A DNA stretch of 64,000 bases from an uncultured Candidatus Poseidoniales archaeon (GTDB lineage: Archaea > Thermoplasmatota > Poseidoniia > Poseidoniales > Thalassarchaeaceae), in the NCBI GenBank assembly GCA_964576865.1, contig CAZNVK010000002.1, positions 9,692-73,691 on the forward strand, written 5' to 3'. Both the position numbers and the translations under genes were made by a program. The notes beneath the pieces were generated by a model. It had not been told where the DNA came from. It ran no database searches and saw only the letters and a program-made list of their open reading frames with translations. Positions 8,901 through 44,148 of the stretch are shown one piece after another. How positions within the stretch are numbered: the first letter of the stretch is position 1; every line of letters starts with the position of its first letter.

Positions 8901-10139
8901 ATGGAGGGAAATATTTTCGAGAAGATTTTGGGACAAGATTCCCTCTTCTTGGATAGAAAGGCCTTCGATCACGCTTTCGAACCGACCTCTCTTCCTCACC
9001 GCGATAGGGAAGTTGAGGCTCTGGTTCGCAACCTTGTCGACGCTCTCAATGGACACATTCCCTCGAACATGTTGCTCTACGGCGTGCCCGGGAGTGGCAA
9101 GACTGTGGTTACCAGATTCGTTCTCGGCCAACTGCGCGAGAAGGGGGAGGAATTGAGCAAGCCCGTGCGCACGTATGAGATAAATTGCCGGCAGATCGAC
9201 ACGCGCTATCGGGTGGTTCAGACTCTTGCAAGTCGGCTGGCTCAGCGTGGGGATGTGCCAATTCCGTTCACCGGTTGGCCGACCGATCGAGTCCTCGAGC
9301 ATCTGGTTGAGAGGATGGATCGCGCTGGAGGGGTTCACATCATCGTTCTGGACGAGATCGACAACCTTGTCGAGCGCGCAGGAGACAATCTACTGTACAA
9401 TCTGACGAGTCTGAATACCATTCTGCAGCGCTCGCGTTGTTGCATCATCGGAATCAGCAATGATCTGCATTTCACTCAATTGCTTGACCCGAGGGTCTCT
9501 GGTCGCTTGGGTCAGGAGGATCTGATCTTCCACCCATACGGAGCGACCGAGATCACGGACATTCTCACCGCACGTGCTGGGACAGGATTGCGTGAGGATG
9601 TCCTAGAGAATGGAGTCATTCAGTTGTGCGCGGCGCTCGCAGCCCAAGAGCACGGCGATGCGCGCCGCGCCCTCGACCTTCTGCGCATCTCGGTCCAGAA
9701 GGCTGAGCAACGCTCGCAGTTGAAGGTCGACCCAAGACATGTGCGTTTGGCGCAGTCACAATTGGAGCACGATCAGGTCACACCGGTGCTGCAGACTTTG
9801 CCGTTGCACCAGAAACTCGTGCTCTTCGCGATCCGAATCAATGAGGATAACGGACTTCGCAATATCTCGACCGGCGAGGTGTACCGAACCTATTCCGACG
9901 CTTGCTTGAACGTCAACGTCGAACCGCTCACACCTCGCCGAATCTCTACCCTGCTCAACGAGCTCGACACGCTCGGCATGATCATGGCACGAAATGTCAG
10001 TAAGGGTCGAGGCGGCCGCAGCAAGCAGGTCAATTCGGCGATTCCGAAGACGATCGATGCAGTCACCACGATGAGCGATGCCGACCCACTCATCGCAGAG
10101 GCTGCTCGCTGCCGCTACCGATTGCAGAGCCATCTGTGA
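8901..10139 (+). CDS. cdc6: Orc1/Cdc6 replication initiator
   Basis: Walker A GVPGSGKT, Walker B IIVLDEID, and a C-terminal winged helix. ATG at 8901. Confidence 0.9.
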   Translation: MEGNIFEKILGQDSLFLDRKAFDHAFEPTSLPHRDREVEALVRNLVDALNGHIPSNMLLYGVPGSGKTVVTRFVLGQLREKGEELSKPVRTYEINCRQIDTRYRVVQTLASRLAQRGDVPIPFTGWPTDRVLEHLVERMDRAGGVHIIVLDEIDNLVERAGDNLLYNLTSLNTILQRSRCCIIGISNDLHFTQLLDPRVSGRLGQEDLIFHPYGATEITDILTARAGTGLREDVLENGVIQLCAALAAQEHGDARRALDLLRISVQKAEQRSQLKVDPRHVRLAQSQLEHDQVTPVLQTLPLHQKLVLFAIRINEDNGLRNISTGEVYRTYSDACLNVNVEPLTPRRISTLLNELDTLGMIMARNVSKGRGGRSKQVNSAIPKTIDAVTTMSDADPLIAEAARCRYRLQSHL

Positions 10140-18119: not shown

Positions 18120-18581
18120 TCAGCGATTTCGTGGCTCGCCCTTGCTCTTCCTCAGCACCCGAACCCCATCGATCTGCGCGCTCGGATATTGCCCATCAGC
18201 ATCCTTCTCAACCGATTTGAGCATATCCCAAGCGCAAAGCAGTCCAGCGTTCACCCCACAAAGAGCCTCCATCTCAACCCCAGTCGTCCAGTGCGTGCGA
18301 ACGCTAACAGTGCAACGAAGCCCAGCGTCTTCAACCGCCCAATCAACGGTACAACCTTCGATCGGAATCGGATGACAATGCGGCAACATGCGCGGCGTCT
18401 CTTTCACCGCCTGAATCGCCGCAACGGTCGAAGCCTCGCGAACATCACCCTTCGGCGAGCGCCCATTAGCGACGACATCGAGGCTCGCCGCAGTCAACCG
18501 CAGCAATCCAGTCGCCACCGCTTCGCGAGCGACGACCGGCTTCGAACCAACATCGATTATCCCCGTGAAAGAATCCTCCAT
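18120..18581 (-). CDS. moaC: cyclic pyranopterin monophosphate synthase MoaC
   Basis: 153 aa, MoaC-like throughout (..VGSKPVVAREA.., ..HCHPIPIE.., VEMEALCGVNAGLL). Confidence 0.85.
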   Translation of the reverse strand: MEDSFTGIIDVGSKPVVAREAVATGLLRLTAASLDVVANGRSPKGDVREASTVAAIQAVKETPRMLPHCHPIPIEGCTVDWAVEDAGLRCTVSVRTHWTTGVEMEALCGVNAGLLCAWDMLKSVEKDADGQYPSAQIDGVRVLRKSKGEPRNR

Positions 18582-20327: not shown

Positions 20328-20750
20328 TCAGCCCAATCCTGCCTTCCAAAGTTCTCCGTCGGCGCGGACTTCCTTCTTCCAAAGCGGGGCTTGGGCCTTG
20401 AGTTCGGCAATGAGCCAGGCACAGGCCTCGAATCCTTCGGCTCGATGCGGACTGCCGACGTGAATGCAGACGATGGGTTCGGCCGGCAACACGATTCCGG
20501 TACGGTGAGCCATCACCACCGATGAGACTCCGAAGCGCTCGACCGCTTCGATCGCGAGTCCATTGAGCACACTTGGCAACTTCTCTTCCCAAGCGTCGAA
20601 TTCGAGGCGTTCGACCTCAACGCCATCATCTTCACCCCTAGTCAGACCGACGAATGAGACCACGCTTCCACAGCCCTCCGGGTCCACAAGACCTCGAAGG
20701 ACCTCAGGGTCGAGGGCCTCCGCCTCGACCCTGACCACGATGCGAGCCAC
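20328..20750 (-). CDS. moaE: molybdopterin synthase catalytic subunit MoaE
   Basis: GTG start. MoaE-like (GSVVSFVGLTR.., VMAHRTG.., HRAEGFEACAWLIAELKAQAPLWKKE). Confidence 0.8.
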   Translation of the reverse strand: MARIVVRVEAEALDPEVLRGLVDPEGCGSVVSFVGLTRGEDDGVEVERLEFDAWEEKLPSVLNGLAIEAVERFGVSSVVMAHRTGIVLPAEPIVCIHVGSPHRAEGFEACAWLIAELKAQAPLWKKEVRADGELWKAGLG

Positions 20751-23081: not shown

Positions 23082-23576
23082 GTGAGTGAGTGGACGTTAA
23101 CCACCTTCCTACACATGGGTGCGGCGGCGACATGGATCGGGTCAATGGGAGTCTACGCCTTTCTTATCGCACCTTATGCGAAAAAGCGGTTCGATGAGGC
23201 CGAATATATCCACTTCCTCAACGACATCGGACTACGATTCCGTCGACTGAGTTGGTTCTGTCTTGCTGTAATCGCCGTGACCGGAGCCAGACTGGCAGAC
23301 CTCATCTCAGGTTGGGAGGCATTTACTACAGCCTATGGGCACACAATGCCTCCAGCGAGCACGATTGCTTGGAAGATGTTGCTCGGTGTAACTTTGGTAA
23401 TCGTTGTCGCTTACCATGATTTTAGAGCCGGGCCGAAGGCGATTGCGTCCTTCCTTGAGCAACCGGACTCACCAGAGACCAGACGCCTTCGAAAAATTGC
23501 CACGAATCACGCCAGAATGATGATGTTACTCTCGATCATCATTTTCTATCTCGGAGTTTCGGTGCTCCGAGGTTGA
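23082..23576 (+). CDS. membrane protein, possibly CopD-like (copper handling)
   Basis: GTG start. Four helices, with N-terminal FLHMGAAATWIGSMGVY resembling the H..aaa.W.G pattern of CopD-type domains. The assignment is weak. Confidence 0.4.
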   Translation: MSEWTLTTFLHMGAAATWIGSMGVYAFLIAPYAKKRFDEAEYIHFLNDIGLRFRRLSWFCLAVIAVTGARLADLISGWEAFTTAYGHTMPPASTIAWKMLLGVTLVIVVAYHDFRAGPKAIASFLEQPDSPETRRLRKIATNHARMMMLLSIIIFYLGVSVLRG

Positions 23577-24175: not shown

Positions 24176-25978
24176 ATGAACCTGAACCAATTGATGAAAA
24201 ACAGAACACAGACCGCAATGCTGCTCGCATTATTGATGGTAACAGCTCCGCTTCTGGCAGGCTGTGTCGGAGGTAGCGACCTGTCTTGTGGAGAAGGAAC
24301 AGAACGACTAGGAGACGAGTGCGTTGTCGACGACTCCGAGCCTGTATGGCAAGGAGAATGGAAGGAATTCAATGTCGAGGCCGCACAATGGGATTTCATC
24401 CCGAGTGAGATAATCGTGAACGAGGGCGACCACGTTCGAATCACCTTCACCTCGACGATGGATGAGCAGGATCAGTATTTGCTCCATTCATTCTCTCTGA
24501 ACGCGTACGATATCGCTGTCGACTTGCCTGTCGGTGAATCTGTAACGGTTGAGTTCGTCGCTGACCAAGTCGGCGAGTTCGGCTACGACTGCTCGGTCTT
24601 TTGTGGAGACCGACACAACGACATGCTCGGGACGGTGATCGTCAACCCCGCTGGCGGTCAGGTCGTCGAGGCTGCTCCAACAATTGGAAACACCACTGCA
24701 TTGGAGATTAGCACCCAAATTTACGACACCACGACATCACCTGGTGGCACACCTGGATGGGTAAACGGAGATTTGATGATAGTCATCGAGCGTGAAGCCG
24801 AAGCAGTCGTGGTTGTTGATACATCGACCGACGAGATTGTCGGCCGTATTCACGGCTTGGGATATCAGCCTCACACCGTGGTATTCGACGAAGAGGCACG
24901 TTACGGTTACCTAATCAGCCGAGGAGGATGGTTCTCGAAAATCGACCTTGATGACCTATCAGTACCTGCATACATCAAGGTCGGTGAATCAAGTAGAGGA
25001 ACCGCTCTATCTTCTAATGGCAACTGGATTGCTGTCACGAATTACGAACCTTCGTCCTTCGTAATTGTCAACGCCCACACGATGGATATCGCCATGGAAT
25101 ACCAAATTCCGGTCCCATGGGTAGACGGTGAACCCCAGTTCTCTCGAGCTGCTAGTGCACTCGACACCGCAAATGGATACATCTTCGTGGCGATGAAGGA
25201 TCTGGGTGAGATTTGGGTCATCGACGCAGATGAGACACGATGGAGCGAGAGCCCATTCCCAGTCGTAAAGGTGTTCAACCACCAAGGTGGAATGCTCCAC
25301 GACGCATTCATCACCCCTGACGGACAGTACTACATTCTGGCTAGCCAAACCAGCCATCAGATGGCTGTTATCGACGCCGTCAATCTAGAGGAAGTTGCTC
25401 TTGTTGAGGTCGGGTTGAAGCCTCACCCAGGCCCAGGAGCGGTCTGGGCTGACTACATTTTCACCCCAAGTATTGGTGAGGGAAAACTCAACATCATCGA
25501 TTCAAGAACTTGGTCGAACGAGTTCGAGTTGCCAATCGGTGGTCCAGCGCTTTTCACAAGAACCTACGAGTTCGGTGACCCCACTACCGATGAGGAGTGG
25601 GAGAAGGACCCAGCCAACCTGCAGTATCCATACATCTGGTGGGACACAGTTCTCTCGACCGATATGGAGGAGAACAAAGAGGTCTACGTCCTCGACGCCC
25701 GTGAGCTCTATGTCCCAGGAGCGACCGATGATAGCATCGCTGCGACCGTCTGGACGCTGAAAGACAACGATTGTGAAGGTCGTACGCTGCACCCCGAATT
25801 CAGCCACGATGGAACCAAGGTGTATGTCTCGTGCTGGGCCGAGGAGGGATTCCTGTTGATCTACGAGTCGACGCCTGGTGCTGATGGCGAGTTCGACCTG
25901 CTCGGAAAGATCGAAGGAATCGCCAATCCGACTGGAACCTTCGGTGTCGGACTAAGGTCCGAGGAGATTGGAGTCTGA
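24176..25978 (+). CDS. lipoprotein: N-terminal CuA-type cupredoxin domain fused to cytochrome-cd1 (NirS d1-domain)-like beta-propeller
   Basis: Lipobox LLAGC. The CuA ligand pattern is HSF-x32-CSVFCGDRHNDM (H-x34-C-x3-C-G-x2-H-x2-M). Propeller segments match NirS from memory: GYQPHTVVFDEEARYGYL, MLHDAFITPDGQYY, KPHPGPGAVW, HPEFSHDGTKVYVSCW and NPTGTFGV. Confidence 0.7.
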   Translation: MNLNQLMKNRTQTAMLLALLMVTAPLLAGCVGGSDLSCGEGTERLGDECVVDDSEPVWQGEWKEFNVEAAQWDFIPSEIIVNEGDHVRITFTSTMDEQDQYLLHSFSLNAYDIAVDLPVGESVTVEFVADQVGEFGYDCSVFCGDRHNDMLGTVIVNPAGGQVVEAAPTIGNTTALEISTQIYDTTTSPGGTPGWVNGDLMIVIEREAEAVVVVDTSTDEIVGRIHGLGYQPHTVVFDEEARYGYLISRGGWFSKIDLDDLSVPAYIKVGESSRGTALSSNGNWIAVTNYEPSSFVIVNAHTMDIAMEYQIPVPWVDGEPQFSRAASALDTANGYIFVAMKDLGEIWVIDADETRWSESPFPVVKVFNHQGGMLHDAFITPDGQYYILASQTSHQMAVIDAVNLEEVALVEVGLKPHPGPGAVWADYIFTPSIGEGKLNIIDSRTWSNEFELPIGGPALFTRTYEFGDPTTDEEWEKDPANLQYPYIWWDTVLSTDMEENKEVYVLDARELYVPGATDDSIAATVWTLKDNDCEGRTLHPEFSHDGTKVYVSCWAEEGFLLIYESTPGADGEFDLLGKIEGIANPTGTFGVGLRSEEIGV

Positions 25979-27224: not shown

Positions 27225-28013
27225 ATGAACGATTTGAACGCACTACTCCACCATGATTCAAATGGCCAGGTTCACAACAGTCTAGCACCTCTAATCGTAG
27301 CCCTCGCCGTTACACTCTGCTTAGGTGGGTTGCTCATCTGGCCCCTCGCGATTCTCGGCTTACCACTGTTGATTCTGGGGATCAGAACTTGGCTCGCAGA
27401 GGAGGTCGAATTTTGGCCAAAAAGAGAATCGCAAACAGATTTCGAGGTTTGGGGAGACGCGTCTTGGGCGATGCTATGGATCATCATAACGGAGACCATA
27501 GTGTTCTCCGCATTCTTCGCCTACTGGTTCTGGACTCGTTGGCACACCGTGAACTGGTCGGGCGCTGTTGGTGGATCGTGGCCAGCTACAGGGGTCGACC
27601 ATGACTTGTTCTTGGTTGGGATCAACACCATCCTGTTGATCTCTTCTGGATTCACAGCACATCGAGCCTTGGAAGCACACGATCGAGATGACCTCAACTC
27701 CTCGTCCAAATTCCTCGTTGCAACAATCCTTCTCGGAACCGCGTTCCTCGCGATACAGGCATACGAGTATCTACATGCGGGATTCGTCTGGAGTGACCAT
27801 CCCTACGGCACCGCATTCTTTGCACTGACTGGCCTACACGGTCTACACGTTCTGGTTGGCTTGGTCATGCTCGCCGTGGTTCTTTTGCTGATGAAAACGG
27901 ATCGTTTTCCTCGTGCACGTCACGATGGTTTTCGAGCGATTACCAATTATTGGCACTTCGTTGACGCCGTCTGGATTATCCTGTTCTTCGTTGTCTACTT
28001 GGAGGTGATTTGA
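27225..28013 (+). CDS. coxC: cytochrome c oxidase subunit III
   Basis: Multi-TM, with ..FFALTGLHGLHVLVG.. and ..YWHFVDAVWI.. signatures. Confidence 0.85.
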   Translation: MNDLNALLHHDSNGQVHNSLAPLIVALAVTLCLGGLLIWPLAILGLPLLILGIRTWLAEEVEFWPKRESQTDFEVWGDASWAMLWIIITETIVFSAFFAYWFWTRWHTVNWSGAVGGSWPATGVDHDLFLVGINTILLISSGFTAHRALEAHDRDDLNSSSKFLVATILLGTAFLAIQAYEYLHAGFVWSDHPYGTAFFALTGLHGLHVLVGLVMLAVVLLLMKTDRFPRARHDGFRAITNYWHFVDAVWIILFFVVYLEVI

Positions 28014-28756
28014 TGCGATTCAACAAGACCCAACTCGGGCTCATCATCGGTTCCATATTGGTTTTGATGATGACGTTCGCATCCATCTTCAACTGGTTCC
28101 GAGGACTCGGTGGCAGTGGCGCTCACGCAGAGGTTTACGACGAGCTGTTTACTCTGTATTGGGTGCTTGGAAGCATAATCGGGATAATCGTTTACGCCTG
28201 GTTCGTCTACTTGCTCGTCGGTTCCTTCGGCGATGATGCCGGCGAGCCGATGGAGATTGGCGCAGCACCAGTGATTCGAGGCTCAAACAAGGGTGCGGTC
28301 ACCATTTCGGTAGTGATAATGGTCTTCCTGCTCGTTCTCTCGGACACTACATTCGATTCGATCGACTTTTTTGAGAAGCACGAGGAACATACTACCGAAG
28401 ACTCGTTCACAATTGCAGTGACTGGATACCAGTACTATTGGGATTATCAGTATCCGAATGGTAAGAGCATCAACAGCGCCAGCGGTGAGGCACTGAAGAT
28501 TCCCGTCGATGTTCCTGTTGTCTTCGAAGTCACCGCTGGTGACGTCTTCCATTCCTTCGCACTCCCCGACCATCGCATCAAGATCGATGCGATTCCTGGT
28601 CGTGTGAATGAAGGGTGGATACTTGCCGATGAGATTGGCATGTTCCCTGTTCGCTGCGCGGAGCTTTGCGGAGATGAACACGCAATCATGGTTGGTGAAA
28701 TCGAAGTCATGACAGTGGAAGACTTCGATGCTTGGTATGAGGAGGTGGAAGTTTGA
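28013..28756 (+). CDS. coxB: cytochrome c oxidase subunit II (CuA)
   Basis: The ATG overlaps the coxC stop (TGATG). Two N-terminal TMs. CuA motif HSFALP...CAELCGDEHAIM. Confidence 0.85.
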   Translation: MRFNKTQLGLIIGSILVLMMTFASIFNWFRGLGGSGAHAEVYDELFTLYWVLGSIIGIIVYAWFVYLLVGSFGDDAGEPMEIGAAPVIRGSNKGAVTISVVIMVFLLVLSDTTFDSIDFFEKHEEHTTEDSFTIAVTGYQYYWDYQYPNGKSINSASGEALKIPVDVPVVFEVTAGDVFHSFALPDHRIKIDAIPGRVNEGWILADEIGMFPVRCAELCGDEHAIMVGEIEVMTVEDFDAWYEEVEV

Positions 28757-31014
28757 TCGGTTCGAAGAAGAAAATCAGTACAAGCAAGGCTCTGTCCATA
28801 CTCGTCATCAGTTCACTGCTGCTCATCGCAACACCACAATTCGCAGCACTTCCGGGTGGAATCTCAGGGCCATCCGTTGGAGCTGGATGTAATTGTCATG
28901 GGGCGGTTGCCAGCGATGATGTCACAATTATCTTGGAGGGATTGCCGGATGAGTTCATCGCTGGTGAGACGTACCTTGTAAACATCTCATTCGAGGGTGG
29001 GCCCGAAGCAAGTGGAGAGAATTATGGTGGATTCAATCTAGCCGCATCTCGAGGCACTTTCACTGTGCTCGATAACTCCATCCAAATCATGGATGGCGCT
29101 GTGACACACAGCGAATCGGGTAATGACCAAAGGTCCTGGCAAGTTGAGTGGACAGCACCATCTTCTGACAAGGTGAGTTCTCAATTCACCCTGCTCGTTA
29201 ATTCCGTCAATGGTGATGGCTACGCCACTAGCGATGACAAGTGGAATCGCCTCGATTTCTCTGTCCAAGGTCAGAACGCAGGCTCTGGTTCGATTATGGA
29301 CATCGCCGACCCCGCTTGGTTGATCATCGTCGGCGCATTGATTGGTACGATTCTGGCTGTGGTCTATGCACTATATCGAAAGCCCAATTTCGGTCGCAAG
29401 GAGTTGATGCATTGGCTGACGACTACAAACCACAAGGATATCGGTCTGCTCTACCTGTGGACGACGATTCTGTTCTCGATGATCGGACTGGCTCTCTCAG
29501 TCCTAATTCGTCTACAGCTCGTCGTGCCTGACAATGATTTCATGACTGGAGATCTGTTCAACCAAGCAGTCACGATGCATGGCGCCGTGATGGTGCTATT
29601 CGCGATCTCGCCGATGTCATTCGCCTTCGCGAATTACATCGTTCCACTACAAATCGGCGCCCGCGACATGGCCTTCCCACGGCTGAACGCCTTGTCATTC
29701 TGGACACTTCTTCTGGGAGGATTGGTTGCAGCGTCGGGCTTCTTTTTCGATGGAGCGGCTGATGTCGGCTGGACATTCTACTCGCCGCTCACCAGCATCG
29801 AGTACAGCCCAGGATCAGGTGTATCACTTGCTGGTGCTGGACTAGTCCTTCTCATCATCTCGGTGACAGCCTCGACGGTGAATTTCCTCGTCACAATCTC
29901 GAATCACCGAGTTCCGAGCATGAGGATGTGGGACATGCCCATGTACACCTGGAACGTTCTGTTCACCGTTATCCTCATGCTCGTTGTCTTCCCTGCACTT
30001 CTGGCCGCCGTCCTGATGCTCGTAGGTGACAGAGTCTTCGGCACTATGTTCTTCGATCCCAGCATCGATGGAACTACCTGGTGGCTTCACATCTTCTGGT
30101 TCTTCGGCCACCCCGAGGTCTACATCGTTCTGCTTCCTGGACTCGGGATGGCGATGGAGATCGTCCCTACCTTTGTGCGTAAGCATCTCTACGGTCGCAA
30201 GACCATCATCTACGCTTTGATGATCGCCTCAGTCCTCAGTGTATTGGTCTGGGCTCACCACATGTTCATCACAGGAATCGACCCACTATTCCGCAAGATA
30301 GAGACCATCGGCACCGAACTCATCTCGGTGCCGTTCGCGCTCATCTATCTGAGCCTGCTCGCAACTTTCCACAAATCCAAACCAGATTTCACGAAGTTGC
30401 CACTCGTCTTCGTCATGGGTGCAGTTGGGATATTCCTAGTTGGTGGAATCACAGGAGTATATCTCGCCAGCGTGGCTATGGACGTACAATTACGAGGCAC
30501 ATACTTCATCGTCGCTCACTTCCACTACACACTCGGCGCGGTGGCTGTGATGACCCTCGGCGGAATCTACTACTGGTATCCCAAGATGTTCGGGAGGATG
30601 CTCGATGAACGGTTGGGATGGTGGCATTTCTGGACTACATTCCTAGGAATCAATCTGACATTCATCCCTCTATTCGGCTTGTGGGACATGCCCCGCCGAA
30701 TATACGTCTATCAGGTCGAGGCGGGATGGGCTGACCAGCACCTCTGGGCAACCATCGGCTCCCTCGTGGTCTTTATTGGTCAGGTTATCTTCTTCTGGAA
30801 TTTCATCCGCAGCCTCAAGCACGGCGAAGAGGCTGGCGACGACCCCTGGGGAGGACACACCTTTGAGTGGTTGACGAGCTCCCCTCCGCCCGCACACAAT
30901 TGGGACAATCTACCAATGATGTCAGGTTGTATCGATTGTGGTAATTGTGACTGTTCGAAGGAAATCGGTGGTAGATGCTCAAGCTGCGAGAAGACCTTGA
31001 ATATCCCTGCGTGA
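28753..31014 (+). CDS. coxA: cytochrome c oxidase subunit I with extra N-terminal secreted reeler-like GCxCHG domain and C-terminal Cys-rich tail
   Basis: The TTG start overlaps the coxB stop (TTGA) and has GGAGGTGG 5 nt upstream. The subunit I core has WFFGHPEVY and AHHMF. The first ~190 aa are a signal plus a non-oxidase domain. The last 32 aa carry 6 Cys. Confidence 0.85.
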   Translation: MIGSKKKISTSKALSILVISSLLLIATPQFAALPGGISGPSVGAGCNCHGAVASDDVTIILEGLPDEFIAGETYLVNISFEGGPEASGENYGGFNLAASRGTFTVLDNSIQIMDGAVTHSESGNDQRSWQVEWTAPSSDKVSSQFTLLVNSVNGDGYATSDDKWNRLDFSVQGQNAGSGSIMDIADPAWLIIVGALIGTILAVVYALYRKPNFGRKELMHWLTTTNHKDIGLLYLWTTILFSMIGLALSVLIRLQLVVPDNDFMTGDLFNQAVTMHGAVMVLFAISPMSFAFANYIVPLQIGARDMAFPRLNALSFWTLLLGGLVAASGFFFDGAADVGWTFYSPLTSIEYSPGSGVSLAGAGLVLLIISVTASTVNFLVTISNHRVPSMRMWDMPMYTWNVLFTVILMLVVFPALLAAVLMLVGDRVFGTMFFDPSIDGTTWWLHIFWFFGHPEVYIVLLPGLGMAMEIVPTFVRKHLYGRKTIIYALMIASVLSVLVWAHHMFITGIDPLFRKIETIGTELISVPFALIYLSLLATFHKSKPDFTKLPLVFVMGAVGIFLVGGITGVYLASVAMDVQLRGTYFIVAHFHYTLGAVAVMTLGGIYYWYPKMFGRMLDERLGWWHFWTTFLGINLTFIPLFGLWDMPRRIYVYQVEAGWADQHLWATIGSLVVFIGQVIFFWNFIRSLKHGEEAGDDPWGGHTFEWLTSSPPPAHNWDNLPMMSGCIDCGNCDCSKEIGGRCSSCEKTLNIPA

Positions 31015-31024
31015 AGGGGCGCTT

Positions 31025-31573
31025 ATGCAGGACGATCGCTGGGCATGGCTCATCGCTCTGTTCTGCGCCCTGCTGATAGCCTTCGCTCCCTCGGCTGTCG
31101 CGGATGACCACGATGAGGACGAGGATGAACACGATGACGAAGGCAGGGAGAACGAATTGGAGGATGCTGGCGAGACTGTTGGTGAGATCTCTGCCTGGTT
31201 GCTGGGTTTGACTCTGGCGTACTTCGGATGGAAAAGGGTCCTGCCGCCGATTCGAAAGCGATTGAAGGCGTCCGAACAGAAGGACCAACTCAAACGATTG
31301 AACTCATGGAACAAGCGTGCCATTCCCATCCACACTCTCCTCGGGACTGCGGCTCTGATTACCGGATTCATTCACGGATTGATGATGGACGAATCGCATC
31401 CAACCCTGTGGATCGCCCTCTTCCTCATGGGCGTTCTATCCGTGTCAGGTAGTCTGATGCGATGGAAATGGCCGCCTCGTGAAGTCAAGAGAGGTGCCCG
31501 ATTGCTACACATGCAGAGGCTGATATCGCTCGTGGTCGTGGCGCTCCTCTTCGTAGGTCACGAGATGGTCTGA
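31025..31573 (+). CDS. membrane protein: signal, Asp/Glu/His-rich segment, 4 TM helices with 4 His (cytochrome-b-like)
   Basis: DDHDEDEDEHDDEGRENELED, then helices carrying IPIHTLLG, FIHGL, LLHMQ and VGHE. Confidence 0.5.
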   Translation: MQDDRWAWLIALFCALLIAFAPSAVADDHDEDEDEHDDEGRENELEDAGETVGEISAWLLGLTLAYFGWKRVLPPIRKRLKASEQKDQLKRLNSWNKRAIPIHTLLGTAALITGFIHGLMMDESHPTLWIALFLMGVLSVSGSLMRWKWPPREVKRGARLLHMQRLISLVVVALLFVGHEMV

Positions 31574-31610: not shown

Positions 31611-31626
31611 CCCGAACATGTTCGGG
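31611..31626. promoter_or_regulatory. perfect 16-bp palindrome CCCGAACATGTTCGGG, with a half-site CCTGCT-AT-GTTCGG at 31651..31664
   Basis: Read directly. The ATG at 31618 lies inside the palindrome, so I place the CDS start downstream. Confidence 0.55.
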
Positions 31627-31671
31627 GCGAGTGATATTGTGCTTACTTTGCCTGCTATGTTCGGGGGTCAG

Positions 31672-32355
31672 ATGCGAGCAAGACTAACTCCTCCATCCGG
31701 TGGCTTCTTGGCGAAGGGGTCCGTCATTTCACTACTGATCATTCTCCTTCTGGCTCCCACTTCATTCGCATTTCCTACAGGCATCTCTGGTTCATCGGTT
31801 GACCTAGGTTGTATGTGCCATGGTGACGCGACCACCGACGAGTCGGTCGAGATCCAGTTACTCGGTCTGCCCGAAGTCTGGGATGTCGGAGTTGCCTATG
31901 AACTGACTCTGCAGGTGAGCTCGGCTGTCCCTGAGAATGGAGAAACAACAGCTGGATTCAATCTGCGAGCGACCGCAGGTATTCTAGTTGCGATTGACAC
32001 CTCTGTCCAATTATTGGATGGTGAATTGACCCATACCGAAGCAGGCAACTCTCAAAGGTCCTGGGATTTCATCTGGACGGCCCCCTCGAAGGCTAGTCCA
32101 AGGGTCGGATTCAAAGCCTTCGTCAATACTGTCGATGGAGATGGAACCGCTGATTCTGAGGACCGGTGGAACTCCTTCGAGACGCAGGCCAATGGACCCG
32201 CAGCGGTTTGGACGGGTACTGATTCTCCTCCCGTTTGGAAATCCATGCTTCTGGGTCTCTTCCTCGCAGCGATTGTAGTAAACATCCTCCCTCATGGTGG
32301 TGGAGCAGCTGAGATTCGCGGCAAGAGAAGCCAGATCTCAGAAGGCGAGGAATGA
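31672..32355 (+). CDS. secreted, C-terminally anchored paralog of the CoxA N-terminal GCxCHG (reeler-like) domain
   Basis: Start trimmed to ATG 31672 (MRARLTPPSG.. signal). It aligns by eye with CoxA residues ~30-190: GISGxSV..GCxCHG, GLP, GFNLxA, THxExGNxQRSW..WTAPS, VNxVxGDG..WN. C-terminal TM LLGLFLAAIVVNIL. Confidence 0.55.
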   Translation: MRARLTPPSGGFLAKGSVISLLIILLLAPTSFAFPTGISGSSVDLGCMCHGDATTDESVEIQLLGLPEVWDVGVAYELTLQVSSAVPENGETTAGFNLRATAGILVAIDTSVQLLDGELTHTEAGNSQRSWDFIWTAPSKASPRVGFKAFVNTVDGDGTADSEDRWNSFETQANGPAAVWTGTDSPPVWKSMLLGLFLAAIVVNILPHGGGAAEIRGKRSQISEGEE

Positions 32356-32396
32356 ATATGGGAAGTGTACCAAGCATGGTCCGGAGAAAGGTCGAC

Positions 32397-33050
32397 ATGC
32401 AGCACCTCCTGATTTCAATCCGTCTTCCTGAGGGGCATTGGGCTGGGGATTTAACTCGGTCTAATCCAGGCGTATCAATTCGAGTTGACGAACATATGGC
32501 CCTTCCCGAAGGCCGAGGTCTCAGCACTATCGTTGTAGCTGGAAATGGCATGGATCGCTTCGTTAGCGACCTCGAAGCTCACGACGGAATGGAGGGAGCA
32601 GCCATTTTCGAAGAGCATGAGGACACGATCGAAATGAGTGTTACAATCGCACGTCACGGTGGAGGATTCCTTCGCCCACTAATCAGAGCCGAAGTGACGC
32701 CACAGACACCTTTCACTGTCAGGGATGGTTGGGTTGAATGGGAGTTTGTAACCGACCACGAGCACGTCAAGAAGTTAGTGAAGGGGCTCAAAGAGTCCGA
32801 ACTCCCACACAGAATCCACTCACTCTCAAAGGAATCGACTTCTCGCCTATTGACGGTAAGACAACGCGAGGTCTTCGACCTAGCTGTATCTGAGGGATAT
32901 TATGACAATCCACGTCGCATCACTCTGACCGCGCTCGCAGAGAAGGCGGGCGTCTCCAAATCAACACTCTGTGAGATGATTCACCTCATCGAGAAGAACA
33001 TCATCGATGAATTTGCAGATTCCGTAAGGAGGCAGAGTCCAAGAGACTGA
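32397..33050 (+). CDS. HTH_10 (bacterio-opsin-activator-type) transcription regulator
   Basis: C-terminal LTVRQREVFDLAVSEGYYDNPRRITLTALAEKAGVSKSTLCEMIHLIEKNI. Trimmed to ATG 32397. Confidence 0.7.
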   Translation: MQHLLISIRLPEGHWAGDLTRSNPGVSIRVDEHMALPEGRGLSTIVVAGNGMDRFVSDLEAHDGMEGAAIFEEHEDTIEMSVTIARHGGGFLRPLIRAEVTPQTPFTVRDGWVEWEFVTDHEHVKKLVKGLKESELPHRIHSLSKESTSRLLTVRQREVFDLAVSEGYYDNPRRITLTALAEKAGVSKSTLCEMIHLIEKNIIDEFADSVRRQSPRD

Positions 33051-42344: not shown

Positions 42345-43004
42345 TCAGGCATGGTATCTGACGCGGCCGCGGATGGCGTCAAAGCGTTCGACGACCTCGG
42401 CCGCGGTCGGACTCGTTCCCGAGTCCGCGGCGCGGTATCCCTCGAGCATTGTGTCAACCGCGCCGTCCAATGTGTGATGGCTGGCGGTGAGGCACTCGTT
42501 GAGCACCTGCAGGTCGAGGCCGAGTTGTTCGATTTCAGGTGCGATGCGCGCGAGGCCGAAATCGATGAGGCTCAATTCTCCGGCCTCGTCGATCATCACA
42601 TTGTGTGTAGTTAGGTCGCCGTGGGCGACCTCGGCTTCGTGCAGCCGACGAATCAAACCGCCGAAGCCGCGAACCGCTTCCAATCCGGCCGCTCCATCCT
42701 GCAAAGCCTCGTAGAGTGGCCGACCATCGATGCGCGAAAGCAGCATCCAACCATCCTCCGCATCGACATCCAGCAAAGCAGGCGAAGGAAATCCAATTCC
42801 TTGCAAGCGCGCCAGAATCCGCGCCTCAGCCGACAATCTCTGGCGCGTCAACTTCCGGTCGAGCGAAGGGTGCCGATAGGCTCGCGGTTCGCGCTTTTTT
42901 AGCACGGCGGAACGGCCCATCCATGACCCCGCCGTCGCTGTCGCTTCAGCCCCGATGTGGAGGACCTTCTCCACCTTCCACATCGGTATCCGCTCCTCAG
43001 CCAT
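42345..43004 (-). CDS. bud32: Kae1-associated kinase Bud32
   Basis: ORF trimmed to ATG 43004. GAEATA.., HGDLTTHNVMI, IDFGLA. Confidence 0.75.
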   Translation of the reverse strand: MAEERIPMWKVEKVLHIGAEATATAGSWMGRSAVLKKREPRAYRHPSLDRKLTRQRLSAEARILARLQGIGFPSPALLDVDAEDGWMLLSRIDGRPLYEALQDGAAGLEAVRGFGGLIRRLHEAEVAHGDLTTHNVMIDEAGELSLIDFGLARIAPEIEQLGLDLQVLNECLTASHHTLDGAVDTMLEGYRAADSGTSPTAAEVVERFDAIRGRVRYHA

Positions 43005-43062
43005 ACCCCGCCGAGATGAGATGCCTTGAAAGCGGTTGCACCGGAGGCAGCAGCGAGCACAG

Positions 43063-44148
43063 ATGACGATGCAGATGCCATCGGTCCCTCTTCCACGCGG
43101 CTCGCTGCAGCCGAAGGAGTACTCAGCCGAAGAAATCGAGGCGGAAGCAATCCGTCTACAGCAAGTCATCCGGCAGGGGAGTCTTTGGGACCTTGAGACC
43201 TGCCGAACAATCGCTCCACTGACGCTTGAAATCAACGAGCTCAAGCGCGCTAATGATGTGTTCTTGATCGCGCATTCCTACCAGACTCCAGACATCGTTT
43301 ACGGGGTCGCCGACGAGGTTTCGGACAGTTATTCCCTCTCCAAGGCCGCACGGGATGCTCTGCAACAGACCATACTTTTCTCCAGTGTTCGATTCATGGC
43401 TGAGACAGCGAAGATCGTCAGCCCGCACAAGACGGTGCTGCATCCATCTCCTGAAGCGGGCTGTTCCCTATCTGACAGCATTACTGCCGTGGATGTGCGC
43501 GAACTGAAGGAGCGCTATCCGGGGGTTCCGGTCGCCTGCTACATCAACACGAGCGCTGAGGTCAAGGCTGAGGTGGATGTGTGCGTGACGAGTTCCAATT
43601 TCTTGGGGATTTGCGAGAAGTTGCCTGGTGACCGGCTGATTTTTGTTCCCGACCGGCTGATGGGTAAGCATCTGACCGAGCATCTAGCCGGTCGGAAAGA
43701 AGTCATCAATTATGATGGCGAGTGCTATGTTCACGCCACTTTCACCGGTGAGAAAATACGCTCGTGGCGTGAGAGATCAGCCTCGCAGGGCATTGAATTA
43801 ACGGTGTTGAGCCATCCCGAGTGCGATGCTGATGTCATCGCCGAGAGCGATGTTGTGGGCAGCAGTGAGAAGTTGATGGAAGAGGCCTTGCGTTTGGGTG
43901 AGGAAGGCAAGCCCGACATCATGCTGATCACCGAGTGCGGCACGGCTGACAGGGTTCGCGCTGAGTCGGATTCTGAGTTGAATCTGATTGGCACCTGTGT
44001 GATGTGCCGCTACATGAAAATGACACAACTCGAGGATATTCTGCAAGCGCTGCGAGAGCCGCGTCCGGACCAAATCATCGAGTTGGACGCGGACATCATC
44101 GAGCGAGCCCAGCGAAGTCTCTCCGAGATGTTCAGGCTCGCTGAGTAA
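43063..44148 (+). CDS. nadA: quinolinate synthase
   Basis: ATG 43063 (TTG 43036). IAHSYQ.., VCYINTSAEVKA.., SHPEC.., ECGTADR; NadA-like throughout. Confidence 0.8.
   Translation: MTMQMPSVPLPRGSLQPKEYSAEEIEAEAIRLQQVIRQGSLWDLETCRTIAPLTLEINELKRANDVFLIAHSYQTPDIVYGVADEVSDSYSLSKAARDALQQTILFSSVRFMAETAKIVSPHKTVLHPSPEAGCSLSDSITAVDVRELKERYPGVPVACYINTSAEVKAEVDVCVTSSNFLGICEKLPGDRLIFVPDRLMGKHLTEHLAGRKEVINYDGECYVHATFTGEKIRSWRERSASQGIELTVLSHPECDADVIAESDVVGSSEKLMEEALRLGEEGKPDIMLITECGTADRVRAESDSELNLIGTCVMCRYMKMTQLEDILQALREPRPDQIIELDADIIERAQRSLSEMFRLAE

Follow-up and report, generated by a model that had tools for sequence, protein, structure and literature searches.

Nitrite reductases are taught as two unrelated kinds, the copper enzyme NirK and the heme cd1 enzyme NirS. 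In NosZ and cytochrome oxidase, electrons enter through the CuA centre. Among the d1-type propellers, published motifs separate NirS from its relatives: motif VI reads LHD in NirS, PyD in the case of NirF and LDD in that of NirN, and motif VII reads PHpGpG in NirS, while NirN and NirF never carry Pro at its third position (Pold et al., 2024, Fig. S1 legend). Annotation of the archaeal relatives is uneven, the genes being counted as nirS, excluded or overlooked depending on the survey. For example, one survey counts the haloarchaeal genes as nirS (PMC11052009, with Natrinema J7-2 among the carriers in its Table 6), a haloarchaeal census reported NirK alone, and Pold et al. (2024) left the proteins out as a clade of NirS-like proteins in halophilic archaea that has no cytochrome c domain, no evidence for cd1 NirS being reported. 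The gene described here belongs to an uncultured Candidatus Poseidoniales archaeon (GTDB family Thalassarchaeaceae) and lies on a stretch of 64,000 nucleotides, referred to below as the window (positions 9,692 to 73,691 of contig CAZNVK010000002.1, assembly GCA_964576865.1). It is complete in the open reading frame listing (24176..25978, + strand) and encodes an acidic lipoprotein of 600 amino acids in which a CuA-type cupredoxin precedes a heme-d1-type beta-propeller (hereafter CuA-d1). This architecture is real and far beyond chance, and a combination of CuA with heme d1 in one nitrite reductase would be the third besides NirK and NirS. The architecture, the ligand sets, the fold, the conservation of the family and the genomic contexts were established directly.

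The same protein is in the database as P0001, in a 90% cluster of eight members, some of them on up to 31 contigs. The leader of the protein, MNLNQLMKNRTQTAMLLALLMVTAPLLAGC, terminates in a lipobox, and this region, read from the sequence (24176..24265, +), corresponds to a Sec-type signal peptide followed by LAGC (L27-A28-G29-C30, within LLAGC), from which a lipid anchor on the outer face of the membrane is predicted. The leader is disordered and of low confidence in an AlphaFold2 model built from 11 orthologs, which as a whole reaches a predicted local distance difference test score (pLDDT) of 81.5 and a predicted template modelling score (pTM) of 0.78. Next comes a Cys38-x10-Cys49 hairpin linker (CGEGTERLGDEC; 24287..24322, +), kept in the orthologs from Poseidoniales (MGII). 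Haloarchaeal orthologs, in contrast to the Sec leader of the MGII protein, carry Tat signals with a lipobox.

The cupredoxin domain occupies residues ~60-158 (24353..24649, +) and is recognized by Pfam, NCBIfam, PDB and ortholog alignments. Its five ligands are spaced H104-x34-C139-x3-C143-x3-H147-x2-M150, the CuA ligand set (H-x(n)-C-x3-C-x3-H-x2-M) on a cupredoxin fold. A direct count gives the identical spacing in the neighbouring CoxB (HSFALP...CAELCGDEHAIM), 2 kb downstream, so that the lipobox and the full CuA spacing shared with CoxB, both proposed by a first-pass annotation of the window, are borne out. In Pfam, this N-terminal domain scores 28.2 bits with Cupredoxin_1, above the cutoff of 27, and 19.1 bits with COX2, below the cutoff of 22. 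Its best matches in NCBIfam are the CuA domains of NosZ (L-NosZ, E=7e-22), with CoxB CuA models matching too, and in the PDB the sequence matches are the CuA domains of ba3 oxidase and NosZ. The domain is modelled as a beta-sandwich with pLDDT 80-91. The ligands are invariant in 11 of the 11 aligned orthologs and in ~30 haloarchaeal ones, and the domain is predicted to hold binuclear copper. An inter-domain linker (residues 159-194; 24650..24757, +), whose pLDDT falls below 50 at 161-173 and 187-190 and whose length varies among orthologs, leads to the second domain.

The remainder of the protein (residues 195-600; 24758..25975, +) is an eight-bladed propeller of the heme-d1 type, as indicated by Pfam, PDB alignments, the fold search and invariance in the family. 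The Pfam model Cytochrom_D1 (PF02239) spans residues 198-591 and profile positions 4-365 of 368 (362/368) with E=2.6e-46. In a fold search with the AlphaFold2 model, the top 30 PDB matches were all d1 propellers of NirN, NirS or NirF (E=3.5e-27 to 1.5e-24), and the next one, at 1.3e-16, was a YVTN propeller of the generic kind. Profile coverage, fold ranking and pocket residues therefore rule out such a propeller, and a NosZ-like reading is ruled out as well, since only the CuA region matches NosZ models. A CxxCH motif is absent from the whole 600-residue protein. The order CuA, then d1 propeller, no heme c domain and a heme-copper oxidase next door had been read in this way at first sight, and this reading is correct.

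Every string quoted in the first-pass annotation for the propeller (GYQPHTVVF, MLHDAF, KPHPGPGAVW, HPEFSHDGTKVYVSCW and NPTGTFGV) was found in place. In a HMMER alignment to 1aof, the NirS of Paracoccus pantotrophus, H233 (in GYQPHTVVF) aligns with the proximal ligand H200 and H375 (in MLHDAF) with the distal H345, as had been proposed. The second distal His had been thought missing, but H417 (in KPHPGPG) aligns with H388, so that both distal His are present; the corresponding residues of Pseudomonas aeruginosa NirS are His182, His327 and His369. The carboxylate-binding arginines R206, R249 and R274 are conserved, and these three residues, together with H233, H375 and H417, are invariant across the CuA-d1 family. 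In fact, the pocket signature is identical at 39 of 39 tabulated propeller positions in the MGII, Heimdall-type (P0008) and Thermofilaceae-type (P0010) proteins, and its core is common to the haloarchaeal CuA-d1 proteins as well. Because the pocket is so conserved over overall identities of 33-93%, it argues for the same kind of carboxylate-rich cofactor in MGII, Asgard archaea, Thermofilaceae and haloarchaea.

As to the subfamily of the propeller, the window protein combines the NirS-type versions of both motifs, LHD (MLHDAF) and PHPGPG (KPHPGPG), with the proximal and the two distal His of NirS, and these versions are found in the whole CuA-d1 family and in a gene of Arhodomonas. What a NirS would have at the N-terminus, a cytochrome c domain with CxxCH and a Met ligand (motifs I and II), is replaced by the CuA cupredoxin. 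The protein differs from NirN in both motifs, in having no cytochrome c and in having no d1 synthesis operon around its gene; from NirF, characterized by PyD, PHLEG, a non-Arg residue at the position of Arg274 and no redox domain, in each of these features according to the residue table; and from NosZ, with its N-terminal seven-bladed CuZ propeller and C-terminal CuA, in the reversed order of domains and the d1-type propeller. It has the features of the archaeal CuA-d1 family, namely collinear CuA and PHPG-type propeller, an export signal with lipobox and an insertion in the CuA domain. The early label "NirS d1-type" therefore agrees with the published diagnostic motifs. A "NirN-type" label, given at first from similarity to Arhodomonas, was withdrawn because the motifs of Pold et al. 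are the NirS versions in both the window protein and the Arhodomonas gene. Against subfamily profiles, the propeller scores 274 bits with a cytochrome c "PHPGPG" group, 170 with NirF, 125 with canonical NirS and 101 with Pseudomonas-type NirN; in the PDB, the sequences that match best are NirF (8.6e-29) and NirN (1.4e-25), with NirS at 1.2e-13. The "PHPGPG" group includes proteins of Calidifontibacillus erzurumensis and of the Anaerolineae type and corresponds to NirS clades 4 and 5 of Pold et al. Judged from its sequence, the window protein belongs to a deep branch of NirS-like proteins whose active site is of the NirS type. The closest proteobacterial relative is the gene at the nirN position of the nirCFDLGHJE cluster of Arhodomonas. 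In Arhodomonas aquaeolei (locus L024, 3243-11095), the last gene of the nirC-F-DL-GH-J-E cluster encodes a cytochrome c-d1 with LHD and PHPGPG, a case which indicates that position-based "nirN" annotation may be unsafe.

The family was collected by word-indexed and exhaustive profile searches. It comprises ~45 full-length proteins with the collinear CuA-d1 architecture and is mostly archaeal: Poseidoniales (also in a TARA Oceans deep chlorophyll maximum sample), Heimdall- and Thorarchaeota, Thermofilaceae, Desulfurococcales and Halobacteria, the last with ~30 clusters that include cultured Natrinema, Halobiforma, Natronomonas, Halovenus and Salinilacihabitans. All ~45 members examined retain the five ligands of CuA and the histidine of PHPG, and the loss of CuA ligands that might have undermined the assignment was not seen. 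The window protein is 33% identical to that of Natrinema longum over 553 amino acids covering both domains (E=8e-76). A metagenome scan returned nearly exclusively cytochrome c and canonical nir loci, and one more MGII locus (L027). In a neighbour-joining tree, the CuA modules of the d1 fusions all fall into a single group that is sister to NosZ CuA; this tree and that of the propellers were made without support values and are rough guides. An insertion before the first His ligand is common to the d1-fusion modules and absent from CoxB, eNOR subunit II and NapH-linked CuA proteins. Since the modules group together and share this insertion, a single origin of the fusion is pointed to. The closest propeller relatives have a cytochrome c domain at the N-terminal position (P0013, P0025, P0041 and others), and further ones have cytochrome b5 or a two-domain multicopper oxidase there. 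With such varied modules on related propellers, the catalytic propeller is the conserved element, and the N-terminal part therefore behaves as an electron-transfer unit that can be exchanged. The cytochrome b5 forms (sometimes with additional Ig or DUF4215 domains) and multicopper oxidase forms were seen in Logan assemblies (P0022, P0024, P0027, P0028 and P0031-P0034), with PHTGPGA or PHPGPGA propellers.

The genomic context in haloarchaea bears directly on the cofactor. Natrinema longum and Halobiforma lacisalsi, whose genomes are complete, have a conserved cluster headed by the CuA-d1 gene, with two Cytochrom_D1-like propellers of ~385 amino acids without signal peptides, a radical S-adenosylmethionine (SAM)/SPASM protein and glutamyl-tRNA reductase (HemA); the segments downstream of CuA-d1 are 11869-16673 in L107 and 11925-17012 in L108. 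The radical-SAM protein is a NirJ ortholog, 37-41% identical to bacterial NirJ of true nir operons (E=1e-75 to 1e-90), with 39.5% identity to that of Arhodomonas (E=1e-77). The accessory propellers, NirJ and HemA together look like an undescribed archaeal route to a d1-type heme. In Halobiforma lacisalsi, SCO1 and an eNOR-type nitric oxide (NO) reductase (GHGTQQ) with a CuA subunit of 183 amino acids lie divergently upstream (L108 6168-9585, -). No other observation speaks as strongly as this haloarchaeal cluster for a d1-type cofactor in the family and for its place in N-oxide respiration. HTH_10 regulators flank the haloarchaeal clusters (L107, L108), and one is found at the end of the cox cluster of the window too (32352-33050, +).

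Other lineages show different partners. In Thermofilaceae-type loci, CuA-d1 is followed by a small open reading frame, a polytopic membrane protein of the CuA + NapH/NosH-like (Fer4_5) type and another, small CuA protein (L008 11894-14118; L110 4002-6734; L111 3214-5904); the membrane protein has 642 amino acids in L110, the small CuA protein has 140, and a hemerythrin gene lies upstream. This arrangement looks like a supply line of electrons from quinol to CuA. The cytochrome c sister form of Chloroflexota is flanked at one end by genes for cytochrome b, a Rieske protein and a multiheme cytochrome and at the opposite end by an eNOR-type enzyme, the latter with GHPAQQ, in which Gln replaces the active-site Tyr, the signature of eNOR (PMC8756737). 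eNOR-like genes were also noted beside d1 propeller genes in Chloroflexota loci L020-L022 and L036 and in many canonical nir loci of metagenome contigs (L055, L063, L082, L087 and L104).

In the MGII-type loci, the neighbours are a terminal oxidase and, in some of them, NirK. The window has coxC-coxB-coxA (27225..31014, +), assigned by Pfam, NCBIfam and the active-site motif to an A-type heme-copper O2 reductase; its CoxA reads GHPEVY, with the Tyr of an O2 reductase. The oxidase is a linked neighbour and a putative partner. The coxCBA operon lies 0.7-5.5 kb from CuA-d1 in five of the six MGII-type loci (the window, L009, L010, L007 and L027) despite rearrangements. NirK directly adjoins CuA-d1 in two of the six, L007 (12131-14222) and L109 (8217-9740). 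The MGII NirK is genuine and has an N-terminal plastocyanin domain; that of L007 scores 352.8 bits on TIGR02376 (cutoff 296.3), and that of L109 is 48.6% identical to it. A leader with lipobox and Cys-x10-Cys is common to the MGII NirK, the CuA-d1 protein and a cupredoxin protein of 200 amino acids, which suggests that the three are a paralogous set of surface-anchored copper redox proteins.

Taking these data together, we favour a CuA-to-heme-d1 terminal reductase of the cd1 (NirS) lineage, lipid-anchored at the outer face and with CuA replacing heme c, which most likely converts nitrite to NO; we give this reading a probability of about 0.5. In its favour are the intact d1 pocket, the NirS-type motifs, the exchangeable N-terminal module, the coherence of the family, the haloarchaeal cluster, the CuA partners in Thermofilaceae-type loci, the respiratory surroundings of the Chloroflexota sister form and, in MGII, NirK as direct neighbour in two genomes, with the aa3 oxidase operon close by in five of the six loci. 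What we infer is that copper and heme are bound, which way the electrons flow, what the substrate is and, in MGII, where the cofactor comes from. In the proposed mechanism, CuA would be reduced by a small copper protein or by a quinol-linked CuA partner and would hand single electrons to a d1-type heme in the eight-bladed propeller, held by His233 and the three arginines. The His375/His417 pair would then protonate the bound substrate, most likely nitrite, with NO as the product. Replacing heme c with CuA could let archaea that have no cytochrome c maturation system run cd1 chemistry, and would offer an explanation of how cytochrome-c-poor archaea do so.

Several points weigh against this reading. 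Poseidoniales are aerobic heterotrophs of the surface ocean, and the gene is rare among them (two GTDB species representatives). The propeller is about equally far, at the bit scores given above, from characterized NirS, NirF and Pseudomonas-type NirN; no characterized member of the "PHPGPG" branch was found, cytochrome c forms included; and the NirS-specific Arg of PHPGRG is Pro in the window protein (PHPGPG). As to the cofactor, no gene of d1 synthesis was found less than 10 kb from CuA-d1 in the MGII, Asgard and Thermoproteota loci, and the haloarchaeal accessory propellers were not detected outside haloarchaea in a search relying on shared five-residue words, in which they were confined to the same haloarchaeal genera. 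Because the leader of the MGII protein is of the Sec type, insertion of the cofactor would need to take place outside the cell. Finally, NirK accompanies CuA-d1 in at least 21 haloarchaeal genomes (PMC11052009) and adjoins it in the two MGII ones; a second nitrite reductase besides NirK might be redundant, and the real substrate could differ.

This last point leads to the strongest rival, in which the wiring from CuA to a d1-type heme would be the same and the substrate would be O2 (as an auxiliary oxidase or O2 scavenger), NO or hydroxylamine, the enzyme complementing NirK. We consider it possible, although not probable. Besides the co-occurrence and adjacency just mentioned, in L029, L036 and L050 the cytochrome c sister form has NirK nearby, the MGII gene is linked to an O2-reducing aa3 oxidase and not to a NO reductase, and the Arg of PHPGRG has been replaced by Pro. 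cd1 enzymes reduce O2 and hydroxylamine too, and "hydroxylamine reductase" is among the database names of the orthologs. On the other hand, His375/His417, LHD and PHPGPG are the elements that serve nitrite protonation in NirS, a NO reductase, the expected consumer of the product of a nitrite reductase, adjoins in Halobiforma and Chloroflexota, and NirK and NirS coexist in some organisms (Pold et al.). A bolder proposal, which we regard as rather doubtful, is that CuA-d1 represents a distinct and previously unrecognized class of respiratory N-oxide (or O2) reductase with NosZ-type copper entry and heme d1, which evolved once and spread among cytochrome-c-poor archaea. Since the CuA-d1 proteins systematically accompany NirK, its reaction would perhaps not be the textbook conversion of nitrite to NO and might even be new, for example a turnover of NO or hydroxylamine coupled to the oxidase. 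If this were true, MGII, which are among the most abundant archaea of the ocean, would have an unaccounted role in the cycling of NO and nitrite in oxic water.

For MGII only, the protein might hold no heme d1 but another tetrapyrrole, such as an intermediate of the sirohaem pathway or a protoheme-type cofactor, or might have drifted to an electron-carrier or non-catalytic role. Homologs of NirDL, NirGH, NirJ, NirE and HemA were not found by tblastn in the 64-kb window, nor by Pfam annotation in the rest, as had been anticipated at the outset, and tetrapyrrole-synthesis, nir, nor and nos genes were likewise absent from it. In contrast, many canonical nir loci show nirDL, nirGH, nirJ and nirE beside the propeller gene in the same scan. 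The five other MGII loci are equally negative for NirJ, NirDLGH, NirE, HemA and the accessory propellers, which were detected in haloarchaea only, and the Sec leader implying loading outside the cell would fit a different cofactor too. Nevertheless, we find this unlikely, in view of a pocket identical at all 39 positions with P0008 and P0010 and sharing its core with the haloarchaeal proteins that have NirJ next door; moreover, ~20 kb were inspected around each gene, and the synthesis genes may lie elsewhere in the genome. A CxxxCxxC scan of all loci returned NirJ and HemN of Arhodomonas and, in addition, only one open reading frame of the window (42345-43169, -). This radical-SAM candidate was rejected, as it has no similarity to NirJ by tblastn and overlaps better-supported genes.

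Both a reductase and heme handling of the NirN/NirF type have to be considered, and the context favours the reductase. A tetrapyrrole-tailoring enzyme like NirN (dihydro-heme d1 dehydrogenase) or NirF, with the tetrapyrrole as substrate and CuA as electron sink, would account for the best PDB matches and the profile score of NirF ahead of those of NirS, for the nirN position of the Arhodomonas relative and for a redox domain, given that NirN has its own cytochrome c domain as electron acceptor and NirF requires the cytochrome NirC; but it is very unlikely, because both diagnostic motifs are NirS-type (NirN having LDD and NirF PyD, and neither having Pro after PH), a client NirS or d1 operon is absent near the gene in the MGII, Asgard and Thermoproteota loci, respiratory-type partners (CuA-NapH-like proteins, eNOR, cox and NirK) are unexpected for a biosynthetic step of low flux, and in the haloarchaeal cluster CuA-d1 is the sole possible end user of the cofactor.

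Around the MGII gene there are also several others with possible links to metals. A CopD-like membrane protein, a possible copper-handling neighbour, is encoded two genes upstream of CuA-d1 (23082..23576, +; Pfam CopD 36 bits, cutoff 32.1), with a counterpart of 72% identity at the same position in L009; it could provide copper for CuA assembly. The N-terminus of CoxA carries an extracytoplasmic "choice-of-anchor V" domain of ~170 amino acids (28753-29400; NF041895, E=1.3e-26) with a GCNCHG (CxCH) motif, and a free-standing paralog with GCMCHG is found just downstream of CoxA (31618-32355); both are kept beside cox in L007, L009 and L010, and their CxCH motifs may give the oxidase an additional metal or redox site. 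A membrane protein of 182 amino acids (31025-31573), whose gene separates coxA from the choice-of-anchor V gene, has an acidic His-rich stretch (DDHDEDEDEHDDEGRE), is conserved in L009 and may handle metal. Farther upstream are MoaC and MoaE of molybdopterin synthesis (18120-18581, - and 20328-20750, -).

With regard to previous knowledge, members of the family are labelled "cytochrome D1 domain-containing protein", "hydroxylamine reductase" or K15864 nirS in databases. The architecture was unfamiliar to the first-pass annotation, which is correct only in part: ~30 haloarchaeal clusters were already in databases, while the replacement of heme c by CuA appears undescribed so far. Within an incomplete coverage of the literature, no description of the CuA domain, of the linked NirJ/HemA/eNOR cluster or of the wider archaeal distribution was found, and a search for biochemistry on any member of the family found none. 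The family would clearly exemplify how electron-entry domains (heme c, CuA, cytochrome b5 and multicopper oxidase) are swapped as modules on a single catalytic propeller. It is also experimentally tractable, as several cultured haloarchaea have both the gene and an apparent cofactor-synthesis cluster. In MGII, where a minority of lineages have the gene, the linkage to NirK and a terminal oxidase is a hint that NO or nitrite is handled in oxic ocean water.

Compared with known systems, the closest are the proteins of the NirS-like clade of halophilic archaea, such as that of Natrinema pellirubrum (Pold et al., 2024), which have the same two domains, CuA ligands and heme pocket, and whose CuA modules group with that of the window protein. 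They differ in context, since NirJ, HemA and two accessory propellers are clustered with the haloarchaeal gene, whereas the MGII gene is found by cox and sometimes by NirK. The nearest propeller relatives are the cytochrome c-d1 proteins with PHPGPG (Calidifontibacillus erzurumensis, Levilinea, and the Chloroflexi "C1-C2-NirS" of Schwartz et al., 2022). Their pocket is identical to that of the window protein in several cases (e.g., P0013) and differs at 3-4 of the 39 positions in P0041 and Arhodomonas, but they carry one or two cytochrome c domains. A few Chloroflexi forms add a plastocyanin-type cupredoxin to a di-cytochrome NirS, with no replacement by CuA (Schwartz et al., 2022). NirS of P. 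aeruginosa and P. pantotrophus (1nir, 1aof) shares with the window protein the eight-bladed d1 propeller, the proximal and both distal His, the three carboxylate-binding Arg, the LHD and PHPG motifs, the extracytoplasmic location and an N-terminal one-electron redox domain. This domain is a CxxCH cytochrome c in NirS and CuA in the window protein, which, in addition, has PHPGPG instead of PHPGRG, is predicted to be lipid-anchored, shows ~21-22% identity in structural alignment, falls in a separate deep branch and has no nir accessory operon in the window. NirN and NirF (6rtd, 6tv2) have the same propeller fold and give the best PDB sequence matches, and NirF is a lipoprotein in some bacteria; however, NirN has LDD, PHLGSG and a cytochrome c domain, and PyD and PHLEG are found in NirF, which has no equivalent of Arg274. 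NosZ has the most similar CuA and also joins CuA to a catalytic beta-propeller, but in the reverse order and with a seven-bladed propeller that binds the CuZ cluster and no heme; its E-values in the fold search are ~12 orders of magnitude weaker than those of the d1 propellers. Finally, the CuA-type NO reductases (CuANOR of Bacillus and eNOR subunit II) have an unrelated catalytic subunit, a membrane-integral heme-copper one; nevertheless, in these N-oxide reductases a CuA cupredoxin stands in for a heme c subunit, which makes them a precedent (PMC8756737, Table A4).

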